This document shows positions 13,410 through 21,590 of a DNA stretch of 64,000 nt, in pieces. Position 1 is the first letter of the stretch. Each line of letters opens with the position of its first letter. A program made the position numbers and the translations under genes. The DNA comes from Planctomycetota bacterium (GTDB lineage Bacteria; Planctomycetota; PLA2; JAEUHO01): positions 1,376,001 to 1,440,000 of the forward strand of contig CBDCTJ010000007.1 in assembly GCA_965222115.1 (NCBI GenBank). Reading direction: 5' to 3'. Under the pieces are notes generated by a model. That model ran no database searches and was not told where the DNA came from. It saw only the letters and a program-made list of their open reading frames with translations.

Positions 13410-15275
13410 CTAACTCCGCTTCGGCACCAACGTAACAAAGTGGGCGACAGCGCCTGGGCGCACACCTTCAATCGTCTGCGAACGATAGCCCTCTTTGCTG
13501 AGGCGGATCGTCATGGGCCTGTCGGCGAGGTCGCGGGAGACGAACCAGCCCATGGTGTCGGTGGAGCTGCGGGGTTCGTCGCCGAAGAGGGAGTCGCCGG
13601 TGCTTGCGGGCTTGAGGAGTACGGGGCGACCGCCTTCGGAACGTGAGACGTCGATGTTTACGCCAGCAAGCGGAACGCCGTAAGGATCGTTCACGGCCAC
13701 GTGCAAGGGATAGCCGCGCAACAACGTGACGGACATTGGCGTCTTCGAGGATCGATCGGCGGCTTCGAGGGCCATGGCGTAACCGGGAGCGCGAATTTCA
13801 ACTTCGGCAGGGCCGGTTGGGAGCGACGTCCATGATGCTTGACCGCGATCGTTGGTGAGTGAACGGACGGTAATGCGTTCACCTCGATGGGAGATGTGGA
13901 CGGTGACATGTGCGCGCGCAACGGGCTGGCCCATGCGAGAGGCGACGTGTACGGCGAAGGGCTTGTCTCGCTTGAGTGTTATGCGCTGCGCGTCTTCAAA
14001 CGAGTCGACATTCACACGCATGGGTGAGTGGTCGCCGGATTGAACGAACACGGAATTGCGACCATTGCCCGAGATCGGCACGACCGCTTCGCCCTTGGCA
14101 TTGCTCTTCGCAGTGTTTCGCAACGGCCTAAGGCCAGCTTCTGCCGCTTGGCTGTGAATGTTCACCGTGACTGTGGCGCCGGCAATCGGTTTCCCATCTG
14201 CGTCTGAGACAACGACATGCGCGTCTCGTGGTTTGGGGACCACGACCTTGGCAGGCAACGTCTCGATAGACTGCTCAAACGTATAGGACGAGCCATCTTT
14301 GCGAGTCATCCGCGCGCGAAGCATGGTGTTGACGTTGCCGCTTGGGAGGTCACCAAGAACGCGATCTACTTTGTCGCCCGACCCGCGCACAACCACGCGC
14401 CATGGTCCCTTCCGTTCTTGGGTGGCGATTTCCCAGGTGAGCGTTCCCGTATCAGCGCTCGTGTCAAAGATGACGGGTGCCACGTCGGACCGTGGCAGTC
14501 GTACGACAAGTGTTTCGGGAACGCGCAGCGTCATCATGCGCGTAATGACGCGCGCGGCATCGGCGGCGGCTTCCGTAGGTGGTCCAACTCGTATACGAAC
14601 CAAGTCGTTTCGGGCCGGAACCACCAATGTGCCGTCCTCACCCGTCTTTCCCGCGAGTTTGAATGTACGATTCGCAGTGAGCGCAGCGTCAATCGCAATC
14701 GGCACGCCGGCAATTGTGTCGCCCGATGCGGCATCGACAACGCGTACGGTGCGGGCCTGTGGACGACGGGTCATTCCCGCCGGTGTTGGAGGTAAGCGAA
14801 ACGACAAACGATGCACAGGAATCTGACCGACCTGTCCGTGGCGTAGAAACTGTCCCTTCTTACGAATGCCCAGTCCGCCAATCAGTGACTTCAATCGCGC
14901 GCGGCCCTTTGTGTCGGGCGTGTGCGAAGGCGTGCTATGACTGCCGGGGCTCACCTGCCAGTCCGTACCCATGTCGCCCTTTGCTGTAAGCACTTCTACT
15001 TCTACACCTTCAGGTGGCGGCATGGTGGACGGGGGATCCTTGGGTGTGTCGGCCTCGGTGGGATCACGTTCCGGCGGCGTGTTGCGCTCGGGCGCATCGG
15101 TATGGGGGGTGTTGGTTTGCTCCTGCTTGGTTTTCAGGAACCCACTGCCGCCGCCCCCGGACCACACGCCGGGCAACCACTGGTTGAGCTGAAGGAGAAA
15201 GAACAACAGCACCAATGCCATGAGGAAGAACAGCGTGCGGCGTACACGCATCCGCGGACGTTTCGTATTACCCAT
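13410..15275 (-). CDS. Membrane-anchored carboxypeptidase regulatory-like (beta-sandwich repeat) protein
   Basis: N-terminal TM; repeated V-x-D-x-x-G-x-P/T-I-A-G-x-x-V modules, TNDRG, APGY, KEGY. Confidence 0.75.
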   Translation of the reverse strand: MGNTKRPRMRVRRTLFFLMALVLLFFLLQLNQWLPGVWSGGGGSGFLKTKQEQTNTPHTDAPERNTPPERDPTEADTPKDPPSTMPPPEGVEVEVLTAKGDMGTDWQVSPGSHSTPSHTPDTKGRARLKSLIGGLGIRKKGQFLRHGQVGQIPVHRLSFRLPPTPAGMTRRPQARTVRVVDAASGDTIAGVPIAIDAALTANRTFKLAGKTGEDGTLVVPARNDLVRIRVGPPTEAAADAARVITRMMTLRVPETLVVRLPRSDVAPVIFDTSADTGTLTWEIATQERKGPWRVVVRGSGDKVDRVLGDLPSGNVNTMLRARMTRKDGSSYTFEQSIETLPAKVVVPKPRDAHVVVSDADGKPIAGATVTVNIHSQAAEAGLRPLRNTAKSNAKGEAVVPISGNGRNSVFVQSGDHSPMRVNVDSFEDAQRITLKRDKPFAVHVASRMGQPVARAHVTVHISHRGERITVRSLTNDRGQASWTSLPTGPAEVEIRAPGYAMALEAADRSSKTPMSVTLLRGYPLHVAVNDPYGVPLAGVNIDVSRSEGGRPVLLKPASTGDSLFGDEPRSSTDTMGWFVSRDLADRPMTIRLSKEGYRSQTIEGVRPGAVAHFVTLVPKRS

Positions 15276-15384: not shown

Positions 15385-17055
15385 TTACGCACCTGCCATG
15401 AAGAGGTTTGCCCAGCGTGTGTCGGCGAATTCTTCGCGCGAGGTGCGCAGGACGGCGCGATACACCGGGCTGCCGGAGTTGAGGAACGAGAGTTCCTGAA
15501 TCATCTCAATGGCGTGGAGTCCGCGAGTGGCCTCGATGGCTTGCGGCTGGCCACGCATGGCCTTGCGAACCTCGGCGAGCTTACTGCGTGCGTCTTCAAG
15601 TCGGCCCCGGCGCATCAGGGTGTAGGCGCCGCGAAGTCCGTCTTCCGCCCAGTTGTGGGCGCGACGGGCAACCGACTGCACGCGCACATTACCTGGTTGC
15701 TCGCGACCAATGGAGGCCACTTCCCCCCAGTCGCCGCGACGCGCGGCTTGCTTTGCACGTGCATGGGGCGTGGTACCGCGAGCAGTTGCAACGACCGACG
15801 TGCGAGAACGCTTATCGCGCGCACCGACAGTTGGGCGCGCCGCGCGATTTGCGCGGACAAACACGGGCGTGGGAATGGCCGAGTCGTTCAACTGGCCATC
15901 GGGATCGCCTCGAAGCGACGAACGCAAGGGCCGATTCGTCGAAGCCATAGAACCGTTGGGCAGGAATGACTCAACACGACGAACGGTGGGCGGCGGCAAT
16001 GTGCCGGCGCGCCTCACGCGGTCGACCGAGCGCGACGCGACGCGTCGGTTTGAGGAGGTTCGACGAGCCTCTCTGCGGGGTACCGTTGGGAGTGTGCGAG
16101 CCACGCGGTTGCTTGTCCATCCTGCCGGCGGTGCAGCGTCGTCATTGGATGGCGGTGCAATAGACACAACCGCGCGCGGGCGATAGGGAACGGCCGTCTT
16201 CCCAAACCCATGGGATTCCGTTCGCGGCGCGACGGGGATCGTGCGACCGGAGAGCATATTGCTTGGCAGATCACTCAACGGCGCTGTGGCTGTATTGTCT
16301 CTAATCGACTGGTTGATGAGCGACTCGTTTGAATGCGTGGTGGACGCCCCCGAACCGGGGACTGCACAAGCGCCGCCTACTCAGCCAAATTCAATGGTGG
16401 ACGGCGCAACGAAATCGCGGCGCGACCGTCCCCAAGTTCCCACGGTAGGCATGCCCGCACTGGACGACCCCGAAAAGCGCTGTCGTTGGGTATTCGGCGT
16501 GTGCGCGCGCGACGTCTTAAGGTGTAATTGTTCAGCAGCGTTCAAGTGCCTACGGAATTGATCGAGCGATGTCTTTCCGCTCCAGCCCTGAATCCAACGA
16601 CCGTCGGCGGTAAGAAATGCGCACCACGGATAGAACTTTCGGTTGGAAAGATTCGCATCGAAGAGTGCGCGCAACGATTCATCCATGGACTTTGGATCGA
16701 CGGCCAAGCCAATCGACACCTGGGACACGCGATGTTTCACGCTCGGATGTGGCAATACCTTCTTGCAGAGCAACTTGCAGTACGTGCAGCGCTTGCTGCC
16801 GACTTCGACAAAGATCAGGCGATTGCTGCGCGTAGCTTGCGCAATAGCGGAAGCGAACTGTGTTTCCCAGTGGAGCGTGCCACCGTCATTGAAGTAGGGG
16901 TGACGTGCGGCTTCTGCGTTGTTGCCGAAGGTGCTCATTAGCGTCAATGTGCCCAAGAGCAGTGTCCACAGTCGAATGCTCCTTAGCGCATGACGCGTAG
17001 ACGCACGATGTTCTCGCGCCGCGTGTGGCCTATTGCTGTGTGATCGCTGGCCCAT
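15385..17055 (-). CDS. Secreted thioredoxin-fold protein with in-frame TGA (candidate selenocysteine, codon 225) and helical C-terminal domain
   Basis: ORFs 16381-17178 and 15385-16278 share a frame and are separated only by TGA at 16381-16383; signal peptide, CTYC, then FG-U-VGGAC; C-terminal domain aligns with paralogue 17402-19504. Start codon uncertain. Confidence 0.7.
16335..16380 (-). promoter_or_regulatory. SECIS-like stem-loop 3' of the in-frame UGA
   Basis: mRNA UGA-GUAGGCG-GCG-CUU-GUG-CA-GUCCCC-[GGUUC]-GGGGGC-GUC-CAC-CA-CGC; apical loop starts with G, 24 nt after UGA. Confidence 0.55.
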
Positions 17056-17401
17056 CAACCCTCCGATTCCCAGTCTCGCGCGCGCCCTGCGAGTTCGCTG
17101 GACACCTGCGCGAGACAACAAGTACGCGTGGCGGCGGTTCTTGCGTCCACCACGTCGTTGGACGACGACGAAGCGCACACCCTGACGGACATGGCCCGAG
17201 CTGGACCTTGCCCGACATCGGAGATCGCGCTTCGCCTCCTATTCGTCGCACTCGGACGGGATAAATCGGTTCTTGATAGTTCGTACGTAAAAAATCCTAA
17301 ATATGTACAATTCCGGTACATACGACCGCTATGGGCGACGGATCGAGCCCTCCAAAATCGAAGTGTGAAGGGCTTTGTCGGTTCCTTGATTTTCTACGCT
17401 G

Positions 17402-19504
17402 CTAGCGCTGGAAGAGCGAACTCCAGTAGGAGTTGCCCAGGTCGCGGCGGGCGCGGCTCAGGTAGAGACGCTGCTCACTCGTGGTGCGGGCGGCCTCGAT
17501 GCGCTCGGCGTTGTGGATCGCGATGGCGCCCTTTGCCGCCTCTCGCGCGGCAGCCGTGTGGGGCATGCGGCGGCGCACGCGCTGGAGGTCGTCCCTGGCC
17601 CGGTCGTAGCGACCCTTGCGAATGTCCTCGAGCGCGCCCTGCAACATTTCGTGTGCCCAGGCATCGGCGCGGGAGGACGTGCGTCGCACGGTACCCGGCT
17701 CCGCGTCGGGAGCAGGCGCGTTGGGAGGCAATACTTCCGGAGAGAGTTCCACGGGCGCTTCAACCGGGACGGCGTTGCCATAAGGATGTGTCACACCCGG
17801 CACCTCGGGAAGCGGTGGGGGCGCAATGCCCCCAGAGTATTGGTCGCCCGAATTCTGAGATGCGATCGGCGCCGGCGTTGTTGCGTGAGGCGTCTGGCCC
17901 TCTGATGTTGAATGGCTCTGTGAAGACGATGCAAACACACCGCGCGGCTCGACTTTACGTTCTGGTGTTGCCTCGGGTGCTCGAGCAACGTGACGCGGAT
18001 CTTGCCCCGGCCAAACGTCCTTCGGGTTGTTCCATTCGGTCTCACCGAACTCATTGACGACCGCCTCCGCACCTTCTCGGAACGCAGCTTCCGCTTCGGC
18101 GGCACGCGCGGCTGCATTGGATGCGACGGCTTCACGCTGTTCGCGTTCGGAATCCCTGCGTTCGGAATTAACGTCGGCATACGTTGCGGGGGGCGGAAGC
18201 ATGGGATCACCGGCGGTTGCGGTTGCCGTGTCACCCGGTTGCGCAGGTGTGCCGGCGTACGAACGCGTAGTGGGCACGCGCTGGATGTCACTGCGGAACT
18301 GATCCGGCGTGCGCTTGCCTGAGAAGCCGTGTACCCACTGCATGTCGGCGGTTAGGAAGCCAACAAGTGGCATGAACTTCGCCGTGGGCAAGTTGTCGCG
18401 AAGGATGTTGTCTACGGCGACAACTTCCGGCGAAAGAATCTCGTTGATGTAACCCACCGCAACGAAACGAAGTTCATTCTCGGTCTGTGGCACGGTGGTT
18501 TCTTTGAAGTAATCGCAAATCTTGCAATCGGGCTTGGTGGACAACACAAGAATGTGGCGCCCGCTTTGACGTGCGGCCGCTTGTGCTTCACTCCAACGGT
18601 AATACCAGCGGAATGGTTCGGGGGTGGGTTGCGCTTGGGGAGTAGGCGCTGGCGTATTTACAGCTACAGGTGGTGTGTAGGCTGGCGGTTGCGCTTGTGC
18701 AGAGAGAGTAGGCGGAGCAACAGGTGCAGCATTCGGTGTGGGTGTTGCTGTCATGGCAGGAGGTGCTGGGGGCATGGGCGCTACGGGATTTGGCGTTGCG
18801 GCACGTGGTGCCGGCGTTGTGTAACCCGGAGGCGGTTGCGCGGGGTACGTGTGGGGTGCAGCCGCTGAAGTAGGACCTGCTCCGTAATAGGGTGACGATG
18901 CAGATGGATACGTCGTTGTGGGTTGCGCAGGAGCGGGCGTGTACGAAGGTGCCGGAGCCGATGCCACGGGCGCCGGTGTTGTGCCTGCATACGTTGTTAC
19001 GGCACCTGCATGGGGCGTTGGCGTGGAAACCGTTGCGCCTTGGTACGTTCCGTTTGGATATACATAGGTAGGTGCGGATGCTTGCGGATAGGTGTACGTC
19101 GTATGCGGTGCAACGGTTCCTTGCGGATAGGCATAGGTGGTTACAGGACGTGCAGCGTGTGTGTAGGTTGCAGGTGGCGCCGCATACGTGGTGTGAGGAA
19201 CGGCTGCTTGGGGATACGTATACGTCGGATACGTATACGTGGGTGCTTGCACTTGTGCGGCATATCGTTGTGGCGTCTGAGGCGTTGCCTGCGCAACGGT
19301 TCGGCGTACGGCTTTGCGGCCCGCCTTGGCCGACGTCCCGGCGCTGGGTCCGTAGTTCGGGACAGCGACCGGATCGGGCTCGTCCTTGGACGAACTACAC
19401 GCTACCAACCCCAGTGAGAGCGTCGCAATGAGCGCGAGCATGCTGGGGGCCCTCTTGCAGGCGGAACTGCGCAGGGCAGCGGTCAAAACGCGAGACAGTC
19501 GCAT
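17402..19504 (-). CDS. Lipoprotein: Pro/Thr/Tyr low-complexity region + thioredoxin-fold domain + helical C-terminal domain
   Basis: Lipobox LVAC; TYTYP-type repeats; WYYRWSEAQAAARQSGRHILV..CKIC; GGAGGA RBS. Confidence 0.8.
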   Translation of the reverse strand: MRLSRVLTAALRSSACKRAPSMLALIATLSLGLVACSSSKDEPDPVAVPNYGPSAGTSAKAGRKAVRRTVAQATPQTPQRYAAQVQAPTYTYPTYTYPQAAVPHTTYAAPPATYTHAARPVTTYAYPQGTVAPHTTYTYPQASAPTYVYPNGTYQGATVSTPTPHAGAVTTYAGTTPAPVASAPAPSYTPAPAQPTTTYPSASSPYYGAGPTSAAAPHTYPAQPPPGYTTPAPRAATPNPVAPMPPAPPAMTATPTPNAAPVAPPTLSAQAQPPAYTPPVAVNTPAPTPQAQPTPEPFRWYYRWSEAQAAARQSGRHILVLSTKPDCKICDYFKETTVPQTENELRFVAVGYINEILSPEVVAVDNILRDNLPTAKFMPLVGFLTADMQWVHGFSGKRTPDQFRSDIQRVPTTRSYAGTPAQPGDTATATAGDPMLPPPATYADVNSERRDSEREQREAVASNAAARAAEAEAAFREGAEAVVNEFGETEWNNPKDVWPGQDPRHVARAPEATPERKVEPRGVFASSSQSHSTSEGQTPHATTPAPIASQNSGDQYSGGIAPPPLPEVPGVTHPYGNAVPVEAPVELSPEVLPPNAPAPDAEPGTVRRTSSRADAWAHEMLQGALEDIRKGRYDRARDDLQRVRRRMPHTAAAREAAKGAIAIHNAERIEAARTTSEQRLYLSRARRDLGNSYWSSLFQR

Positions 19505-19784: not shown

Positions 19785-19964
19785 TAAGGGGAGTTCGATC
19801 TGCGACCGTAGCTGGGGTGCGCCAATTGCGTCTCCACGACGTTTGTTCGCAATCGCTTCGCGGCGTCACGCAGCGGTCATTGACCACGGCGACAGGCCCG
19901 CGAGCCGCGTGAAAAGAATTCGAACGGGTTGATTTCAACTCGTCTGCTGAAGGAGAGCCATCCC

Positions 19965-21590
19965 ATGGGGGCCAAGCAACTCAGCTTTGATCAAGATGCC
20001 CGCGAACTGATCCGTTCGGGCGTTGAGAAACTCGCCAAGGCCGTCAAGGCCACCTACGGACCCCGTGGTCGCAATGCGGTCATCGACAAGGGGTGGGGCA
20101 GTCCCAACATCACCAAAGATGGTGTGACGGTTGCCGAAGAAGTCGAGCTCAGCAATCCCTACGAGGACATGGGCGCGCAACTTGTCAAAGAGGCCGCCAC
20201 AAAAACCTCCGACGTCGCGGGCGACGGCACCACCACCGCCACCGTACTTGCCGAGGCGCTCTTCCTTGCGGCACATAAGTTCGTATCCGCGGGTGCAAGT
20301 GCGTCGGCAATTGCACGCGGTGTGCGTGAAGCCACCGCCGAGGTTGTCAAGTCGCTTGAAAAGATGTCTCGCAAAGTGTCGGCCGACAAAGCCCACGTGA
20401 AACACGTCGCCACCATCGCGGCCAATGGCGACACCGAAATCGGCAGCATGATCGCCGAAGCGATGGACAAGGTTGGCAAGGACGGCGTCATTACCATTGA
20501 AGAGGGCAAGACGCTCGACACCGTTGTGAATGTCATTCAGGGTATGCAGTTTGATCGTGGCTTCTTGTCGCCGCATTTTGTGACCGACACCGAACGCATG
20601 GAAGTGGTGCTTGAACGCCCCTACGTGTTGATCTGGGAAGATAAGATTTCGGCGGCCACCAAGCTCGTGCCGTTGCTTGAGGCCGTGTCCAAGACCGGTC
20701 GTCCGTTGTTGTTGATTTCGGAAGATGTCGATGGCGATGCACTCGCCACGCTCGTGCTCAACAAGTTGCGCGGCGTTGTTCAGACGGCTGCGGTCAAGGC
20801 ACCGGGGTACGGCGATCGTCGCAAGGCCATGCTTCAAGACATTGCTGTGCTGACCGGTGCAAAGGCACAGTTCAAAGACCTCGCACCCGACCTTGAGAAT
20901 GTCACGATCAAGGATCTCGGCACCTGCCGACGCATTACGATCACCGGTGACAACACAACGATTGTGGATGGTGCGGGTTCTGCCGCCTCGATCAAGACGC
21001 GCATTGCGACCATCCGCCGCGACATGGAAACCACCGACTCCGACTACGACCGCGAGAAGTTGCAAGAGCGCCTTGCCAAGCTCGCGGGTGGCGTAGCGCA
21101 GATCGAAGTTGGCGCCGCAACCGAAACCGAAATGAAAGAGAAGAAGGCGCGCGTCGAAGACGCGCTTCATGCCACCCGCGCAGCGGTGGAAGAAGGCATC
21201 CTTCCCGGTGGCGGTACCGCGCTCGTTCGTGCAGAAAAGGCCGTTGAAGCGCTTCTGAAGAAGTTTAAGGGCGACGAGGCAATGGGTGTGCAGGCCGTGT
21301 TTGACGCACTTTCGGTGCCGCTTCGCACTGTGGCCGACAACGCGGGCTTTGAGGGTCACGTGGTGCTTCGCATGGTGCGCAAGGCCGCGTCGGCGATGGG
21401 CTTCGATGCCACCGTGGGCGAACTCAAGAACATGTTCGACGCGGGCATTGTAGATCCCACCAAGGTGGTGCGCGCGGCGCTTCAAAACGCCGCTAGCGTT
21501 GCCAACTTGCTCGTGTCCACCGACACGTTGATCGCCAATCTTCCCGAGAAGGAAGAGCACGAAGATCACCACCACGATCACGACTTCTAA
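19965..21590 (+). CDS. groEL: Chaperonin GroEL (copy 1, His-rich C-terminus)
   Basis: [38 protein letters not shown]; ends [11 protein letters not shown]. Confidence 0.98.

Follow-up and report, generated by a model that had tools for sequence, protein, structure and literature searches.

The window analysed here is a stretch of 64,000 nucleotides from the genome of a Planctomycetota bacterium (assembly GCA_965222115.1, contig CBDCTJ010000007.1, positions 1,376,001 to 1,440,000), and our subject is an interrupted thioredoxin-like gene on its minus strand. Two open reading frames (ORFs), 17178..16381 (265 aa) and 16278..15385 (297 aa), lie in the same frame and are separated by a single TGA (16383..16381). 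If that TGA is read as selenocysteine (Sec, U), the translation runs ...STIEFG-U-VGGACAVPGSG... with no further in-frame stop. Counted from the ATG at 17055, the product is 556 residues long; CTYC occupies residues 90-93, and U225 and C230 follow. A preliminary description of the locus had proposed two ORFs in one frame split by one TGA, a U-V-G-G-A-C motif and a product of about 556 residues, and translation confirms the coordinates, the motif and the length. Judging from the sequence comparisons described below, it is very probable that the TGA is a selenocysteine codon and that the gene represents a genuine, undescribed selenoprotein subfamily. The gene is made up as follows:

17055-15385, minus strand: whole read-through gene, 556 codons, from the ATG at 17055 through one in-frame TGA to the TAA stop at 15387-15385
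16909..17055, minus strand: signal-peptide-like N-terminus, residues 1-49 (hydrophobic helix 26-41 in the AlphaFold2 model, AEA before the conserved HPYF, alignment)
16501..16908, minus strand: thioredoxin-like domain, residues 50-185, of Thioredoxin_7 / DsbH-like type (Pfam, AlphaFold2, Foldseek)
16777..16788, minus strand: CTYC redox motif, C90 and C93, both Cys (sequence)
16381..16383, minus strand: in-frame TGA, proposed Sec225 (ORFs, translation, run contigs)
16366..16383, minus strand: U-V-G-G-A-C motif, U225 to C230, aligned with C-x-[GDNT]-G-x-C of the homologues
16340..16367, minus strand: SECIS-like hairpin, core GUCCCCG-GUU-CGGGGGC at 16362-16346 with GUG/CAC flanks
15769..16500, minus strand: disordered linker rich in R, S, A, T and P, residues 186-429 (244 residues), containing the U/C motif (AlphaFold2 confidence)
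15973-15999, minus strand: linker motif LPPPTVRRV, conserved across the family
15895-15909, minus strand: linker motif GDPDG, conserved across the family
15400..15768, minus strand: helical C-terminal domain, residues 430-552, ending RWANLF (AlphaFold2, family conservation, the relative P0029)

The thioredoxin-like domain belongs to Thioredoxin_7 (PF13899), which it matches with 31.7 bits against a cut-off of 27, and it has the CxxC motif; the match to Thioredox_DsbH falls slightly under its cut-off. In an AlphaFold2 model built from a 35-sequence alignment of the family the domain reaches a predicted local distance difference test score (pLDDT) of about 97, and its closest Foldseek neighbours are DUF255/DsbH proteins (3ira, 7tkv, 2ju5) and DsbD-gamma (2fwe, 1vrs). 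The linker, at about residues 196-421, has a pLDDT of 40-48 with a slight rise, to about 60, at LPPPTVRRV; the model thus backs the suggestion that a Sec/Cys pair would sit on a flexible arm. The C-terminal domain is again predicted with high confidence (pLDDT 96-97 in the full model; pLDDT 96.1 and a predicted template modelling score of 0.88 when folded by itself), and the 331 codons that are open downstream of the TGA include, at their end, this conserved and confidently folded domain. Foldseek returned no significant neighbour for it, the best match having an E value of 0.9 and the weak rows being TPR-like (SycD, BamD, NprR). The read-through product has five Cys in all, and in the linker only the pair U225 and C230. 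Because the hydrophobic helix and the AEA stand before the conserved HPYF, the protein is probably exported.

The TGA itself is well anchored in the sequence data. Four sequencing runs of one study, from two samples, contain the stretch. The contigs of two runs, X1 and X2, span all of it with zero differences; a separate contig of X3, 151 nt long (16305-16455), covers the TGA, also with zero differences; and X4 has no cover at the TGA. Because the contigs of X1, X2 and X3 agree, the TGA is no assembly slip, and a check that the preliminary description had called for at 16381 thus found TGA in three runs, in contigs rather than raw reads. A sequencing or assembly error in place of TGC, TGT or TGG would be favoured by the low depth of the contigs (2.4-4.3), by the chance that these runs are the assembly's own source, and by the error-ridden contig ends of this assembly, where for example selD is affected at the end of contig C1. 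Set against this are the agreement of three runs from two samples, including the separate 151-nt contig, the position of the window 1.38 Mb inside a 3.07-Mb contig, and the stop that a close relative also has there (see below), so that an error of this kind is extremely unlikely. As for the contig ends, that of C1 repeats the start of C7 (selA), is full of frameshifts and has a broken selD reading; these loci, L049 (G000:C1:654300-655637) and L009 (G000:C7:1-2829), look like an unpolished contig end and not like a dead selD.

Cysteine column, hairpin and selenium machinery

We can ask what other genomes carry at the position of the TGA. With the read-through protein as query, matches were found in 33 of 41 genomes, including all 24 other genomes of the same family, and the homologue contigs are from Planctomycetota metagenome-assembled genomes (MAGs). 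The full-length homologues carry both domains in a single ORF. Their linkers are highly variable, and what they have in common is a set of short motifs: C-x-[GDNT]-G-x-C, LPxPxVR and G[SD]PDG. The first of these is present in the linkers of 22 of the 33 full-length representatives, strictly as CxGGxC in 16, whereas shuffling of the linker residues gives an expectation of 0.08 representatives with the motif. It lies 183-214 residues past HPYF in the homologue loci; UVGGAC of the window lies at 173. In a MAFFT alignment the U column falls on the first Cys of C-x-[GDNT]-G-x-C, and therefore the TGA occupies a conserved Cys position. For comparison, the classical Sec/Cys criterion, as given in the accessible text of PMC1088965, requires that two or more homologues have Cys in the column of the UGA; here 22 representatives have it, within the motif. 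The UGA is also in frame with conserved coding sequence on both sides. A comparison with homologues, which the preliminary description had suggested as a check, therefore turned out in favour of Sec, with single ORFs that have Cys at the TGA column inside a conserved CxGGxC-type motif.

The second hallmark is a hairpin just after the UGA, which would act as a selenocysteine insertion sequence (SECIS). Its core, GUCCCCG-GUU-CGGGGGC, has 7 ungapped pairs and a free energy of -12.3 kcal/mol, and its loop starts 25 nt after the UGA; an alternative pairing, GUCCCC-GGUUC-GGGGGC, places the loop 24 nt after the UGA and sits on a longer imperfect stem, GUG..CAC. The UGA is thus followed on its 3' side by a stem-loop with a small, G-containing apical loop. 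How special such a hairpin is was estimated with SECIS-type criteria, i.e., an ungapped stem of at least 4 bp and a loop, 3-10 nt long, that has G among its first two bases, located 16-37 nt past the codon. Hairpins that match or surpass the one in the window come after 1.2% of 3000 Cys codons, which were drawn from the 8018 such codons in the distal two-thirds of stop-to-stop ORFs with 300 codons or more, and after 1.1% of the 718 TGA stops that end ORFs of this kind. Likewise, the Cys homologues were examined at 12 CxGGxC-type sites; the best hairpins there range from 0 to -10.7 kcal/mol, and none reaches -12.3, in loci that are more GC-rich (70-76% against 61% at the window locus). The free energy of the whole 81-nt segment, on the other hand, is ordinary (z = -0.51; 50 of 200 shuffles fold as well). 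The targeted test discriminates and the global fold does not, and the SECIS-like hairpin put forward in the preliminary description accordingly stands as a structure that is present, rare and absent from the Cys homologues, with nothing unusual in the overall fold energy. No run of T follows the hairpin and no terminator-like site was seen there; an Rfam search of 16150-16550 gave no match.

The genome has a complete set of selenium genes, which answers the question of whether the machinery is there at all: selA (480.7 bits, cut-off 267.9), selB (346.6 bits, cut-off 242.25), selD (150.6 bits, cut-off 125) and a tRNA-SeC with anticodon tca, found by ARAGORN. The selD gene, in the frameshift-ridden contig end, has an in-frame UGA of its own (RLTKYAAAGGUAAKV). 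Family-based searches found at least seven other genes with TGA at catalytic Cys positions, among them a peroxiredoxin (FYPADFTFVUATEF), two redoxin-like proteins (GTGUKPC and GTTUGPC) and three Thioredoxin_7 proteins (SPGULGC, GREKPGUPPC and FTUQPUKDC). The last of these, L069, matches the Trx7/PDZ (seleno)protein equivalog NF041199 with 351.7 bits against a cut-off of 300. From these sequences the organism clearly uses Sec widely. None of four matches to Fdh-type molybdopterin genes contains a TGA.

The hairpins at the seven other UGA sites have stems of 5-8 bp and loops GGC, CGUGC, GGU, GUU, CGUGAC or CGUGU, and six of the loops start 17-26 nt after the UGA. The hairpin of the Trx7/PDZ gene (8-bp stem, GUU loop at +26) and the one in the window are alike in type, and the latter therefore agrees with the genome's own SECIS pattern. 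We also note a pair of TGAs, separated by two codons, at L069:355-366 (G000:C7:1860751-1860762); the sequence reads FT-U-QP-U-KDC, i.e., UxxU, with the upstream TGA 35 nt from a hairpin common to both; the accessible text of the 2026 review PMC13188914 gives the Trx7/PDZ family as CxxU, with one Sec. A further ORF, L048:340-342 on the minus strand (G000:C3:149088-149618), is lipoprotein-like (LLIAGC lipobox) and contains an in-frame TGA that gives QISEA-U-GKC-KRV when read as Sec; neither Pfam nor NCBIfam has a match for it, and by its sequence it may be another undescribed thioredoxin-like selenoprotein. De novo scans for TGA-interrupted ORFs were too noisy (305 candidates by hairpin and GC content at third codon positions, 1049 by nearby Cys) and were dropped; one candidate from them, L047, looks non-coding.

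A selenium-free read-through of the UGA by a near-cognate tRNA (Trp, Cys or Arg) would be compatible with the sequence of the gene taken alone. However, this organism actively uses a full Sec system and the site bears both Sec hallmarks, the Cys column and the hairpin with a G-containing loop, and we regard such decoding as improbable.

A close relative and the wider family

The closest relative in protein collections is P0003, a protein of 212 aa with 69-70% identity from an ENA contig of 170,822 bp, which is an N-terminal ORF ending ...SDYVVSPPVGGG. Counting from an aligned Trp in the BLAST comparison, P0003 has 17 residues left before its stop and the window ORF has 16. A second protein, P0029 (76 aa, ENA), corresponds to the last 76 residues of the window protein at 92% identity, and its longest contig is also 170,822 bp. 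Because the contig sizes are equal and the source is the same, we infer, short of proof, that P0003 and P0029 lie on one contig. The best other match in the family-wide genome search has 44% identity, and a near-length protein search with the C-terminal ORF returned only the window's own protein.

The relative bears on two alternatives. The first is that the gene is truly split, the TGA ending an exported thioredoxin-fold protein of 224 residues and the C-terminal part being started independently from TTG 16278 or ATG 16257. Gene callers do predict two proteins, both in the window (P0002/P0004) and in the relative (P0003/P0029), and the conservation of both halves in the relative would be expected equally of two working genes and of read-through. 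Yet the stop falls exactly on the conserved Cys column, with a SECIS-type hairpin after it; every full-length homologue has its C-terminal domain joined to the exported thioredoxin domain; and the first start-like codons of the downstream ORF come 34 codons past the TGA, have no Shine-Dalgarno-like sequence ahead of them and are followed by no signal peptide, while the 34 codons in between carry on the motif (VGGAC). A split gene is for these reasons an unlikely account of the locus.

The second alternative is a nonsense mutation from TGY to TGA that has left a pseudogene. It would take one substitution, and among the genomes searched a linker TGA occurs in this lineage only, which also has its Cys cluster down to one pair. 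Against it, the downstream frame is intact over all of its codons, the hairpin is specific to the TGA form, and the relative stops within one residue of the same place. That shared stop, together with 92% C-terminal identity at 31% divergence of the thioredoxin half, is hard to reconcile with a decaying pseudogene, and we see only a slim chance that the gene is one.

Although we prefer a Sec codon over these accounts, several observations in addition to the contig depth and the ordinary 81-nt fold energy weigh against it. P0003 is known here from its protein alone, and its stop may not be TGA; moreover, its terminal VGGG can be aligned with VGGA of the window, which would put the stop on the second Cys column. 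The relative's downstream gene is called at 76 aa only, and so short a call may hide further breaks. The linkers of the homologues have 4-17 Cys where the window protein has only U225 and C230, which can be read as decay of a Cys cluster. Finally, no other genome searched has a linker TGA, and for this reason the window hairpin is without covariation support.

Sec does occur elsewhere in the same protein family, at a different site. In Planctomycetota of the same order (L027, L028, L032 and L066) and in a MAG of Blastocatellia (Acidobacteriota; L067), UG[NG]C replaces the CxxC redox motif, and the sites with their hairpins are:

L027:1714-1773, minus strand: UG[NG]C site with hairpin
L028:1714-1773: UG[NG]C site with hairpin
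L032:624-683: UG[NG]C site with hairpin
L066:2615-2674: UG[NG]C site with hairpin
L067:2615-2674: UG[NG]C site with hairpin

Downstream of these UGAs an 8-bp hairpin with a GUN loop is conserved; across the five sequences, 2 of its 11 predicted pairs are compensatory, both partners having changed with pairing kept. In addition, at least 15 protein clusters, nine judged by coordinates and six by sequence, all at the protein level only, start right past the redox motif, which is where an ORF would begin if a TGA in that motif had cut it. Because relatives have UG[NG]C in the redox motif and the gene in the window has its TGA in the linker, Sec seems to have arisen in this family at two different sites.

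The neighbourhood of the gene is as follows:

17402..19504, minus strand: tandem paralogue, 700-aa ORF with thioredoxin and C-terminal domains (ORF, Pfam)
13410-15275, minus strand: next gene downstream, a 621-aa protein with CarboxypepD_reg and Big_1 Ig-like repeats (Pfam)
19929-21590, plus strand: GroEL, its C-terminal tail rich in His

The paralogue is indeed intact and holds both the thioredoxin domain and the matching C-terminal domain in its one ORF, as had been described. Its thioredoxin domain is preceded by a long N-terminal region of low complexity in which TYTYP/TYxYP units recur, and its linker has no Cys motif and no Cys at all. The gene at 13410-15275 and the two thioredoxin paralogues may form a cell-envelope gene cluster.

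Proposed mechanism and relation to known selenoproteins

The comparisons strongly support standard SelB/SECIS recoding, which would yield a single exported protein that has two domains and carries Sec in a conserved motif of its linker. The GC-rich hairpin with its GUU loop, 25 nt downstream, would recruit SelB and Sec-tRNA(Sec), and the ribosome would decode the UGA as Sec to make a single exported protein of 556 residues. In this product a signal peptide would be followed by the thioredoxin domain, which is DsbH/DsbD-gamma-like and has an ordinary CTYC, and then by the long disordered linker and the helical C-terminal domain, which is TPR-like; Sec would substitute for the first Cys of a short linker motif that reads CxGGxC in homologues and UVGGAC here. 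U225 and C230, with V-G-G-A between them, might then close a small selenylsulfide loop on the mobile linker, and this loop might exchange with substrates or with a CTYC, either that of its own protein or that of a partner, as the arm of a redox relay. Selenium would speed that exchange and raise the resistance to over-oxidation, and the TPR-like domain may hold linker motifs or clients. We put forward the relay function only tentatively; against it, AlphaFold2 gives the U/C motif no confident contact or position.

Several known systems resemble parts of this picture. Thioredoxin-fold bacterial selenoproteins with UxxC or CxxU are, as is probable for the window protein, exported thioredoxin-like oxidoreductases with a UGA, a hairpin in the coding region and Cys homologues. 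In the window protein, however, the CxxC-type redox motif is an ordinary CTYC, and the proposed Sec comes about 130 residues further on, at residue 225, in a disordered linker. DsbD (DsbD-gamma) and DsbH, the near folds of the thioredoxin domain, work as redox proteins of the periplasm, where they hand electrons from one Cys pair to another; they have no selenium and no counterpart of the linker motif or of the helical C-terminal domain, whereas the window protein is without a DsbD-like membrane domain. In mammalian thioredoxin reductase a C-terminal GCUG arm has been proposed to shuttle reducing equivalents, and it shares with the window protein a Sec/Cys pair on a flexible segment adjoining a dithiol centre. 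Thioredoxin reductase nevertheless has another fold, belongs to another domain of life and has a flavin domain, of which the window protein has none, and its Cys and Sec are adjacent at the very C-terminus, whereas the window has U-x4-C in an internal linker. UXX-star, KCU-star and SaoC, as listed in Table 1 of PMC13188914, likewise have Sec outside the compact catalytic fold, but at the extreme C-terminus and not, as here, internally between two folded domains.

The preliminary description had not recognised the architecture as a described selenoprotein family, which agrees with both NCBIfam and Table 1 of the 2026 review (PMC13188914). The read-through protein has no NCBIfam match at E values up to 0.1, although NCBIfam includes many selenoprotein models, and it is not a member of Trx7/PDZ NF041199, of which L069 is the true member in this genome. 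Table 1 of PMC13188914, with 119 families or subfamilies, lists no Thioredoxin_7 family except Trx7/PDZ (CxxU) and no U-x-G-G-x-C; for pfam13899 the accessible text of a 2022 review (PMC9312934) gives selenoproteins of the PDZ form only. The accessible parts of PMC13326102 and PMC1088965 likewise contain no non-PDZ Thioredoxin_7 selenoprotein and no UxGGxC, while the supplementary lists of BSepDB or deep-Sep might include the family. By a rule stated in the accessible text of PMC13188914, the same architecture with another Sec position makes a distinct subfamily. Because the Sec position differs here within a shared architecture, the gene would by this rule define a new selenoprotein subfamily, and an unusual one, with its Sec lying beyond the folded redox site.

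We can also formulate a stronger proposal, which we hold as possible rather than probable: this would be the first bacterial selenoprotein with Sec in a short linear motif (U-x-G-G-x-C) of a disordered inter-domain linker, acting as a mobile selenylsulfide arm that carries redox equivalents to or from an ordinary CxxC thioredoxin domain, a periplasmic analogue of the Sec arm of thioredoxin reductase, in a family where Cys was replaced by Sec twice independently, once in the redox motif (sister lineages) and once in the linker (the gene described here). To our knowledge, Sec in bacterial selenoproteins lies nearly always within the folded redox site, and search pipelines rely on that. If the TGA does encode Sec, its place in a disordered linker beside a normal CxxC would widen the range of sites at which selenium is used, two ORFs annotated as hypothetical would be corrected to one gene, and the CxGGxC linker motif of a widespread Planctomycetota family would be marked as redox-active. 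The family would then also offer a natural pair for asking what selenium brings at each position, with active-site Sec in some lineages and linker Sec in another.

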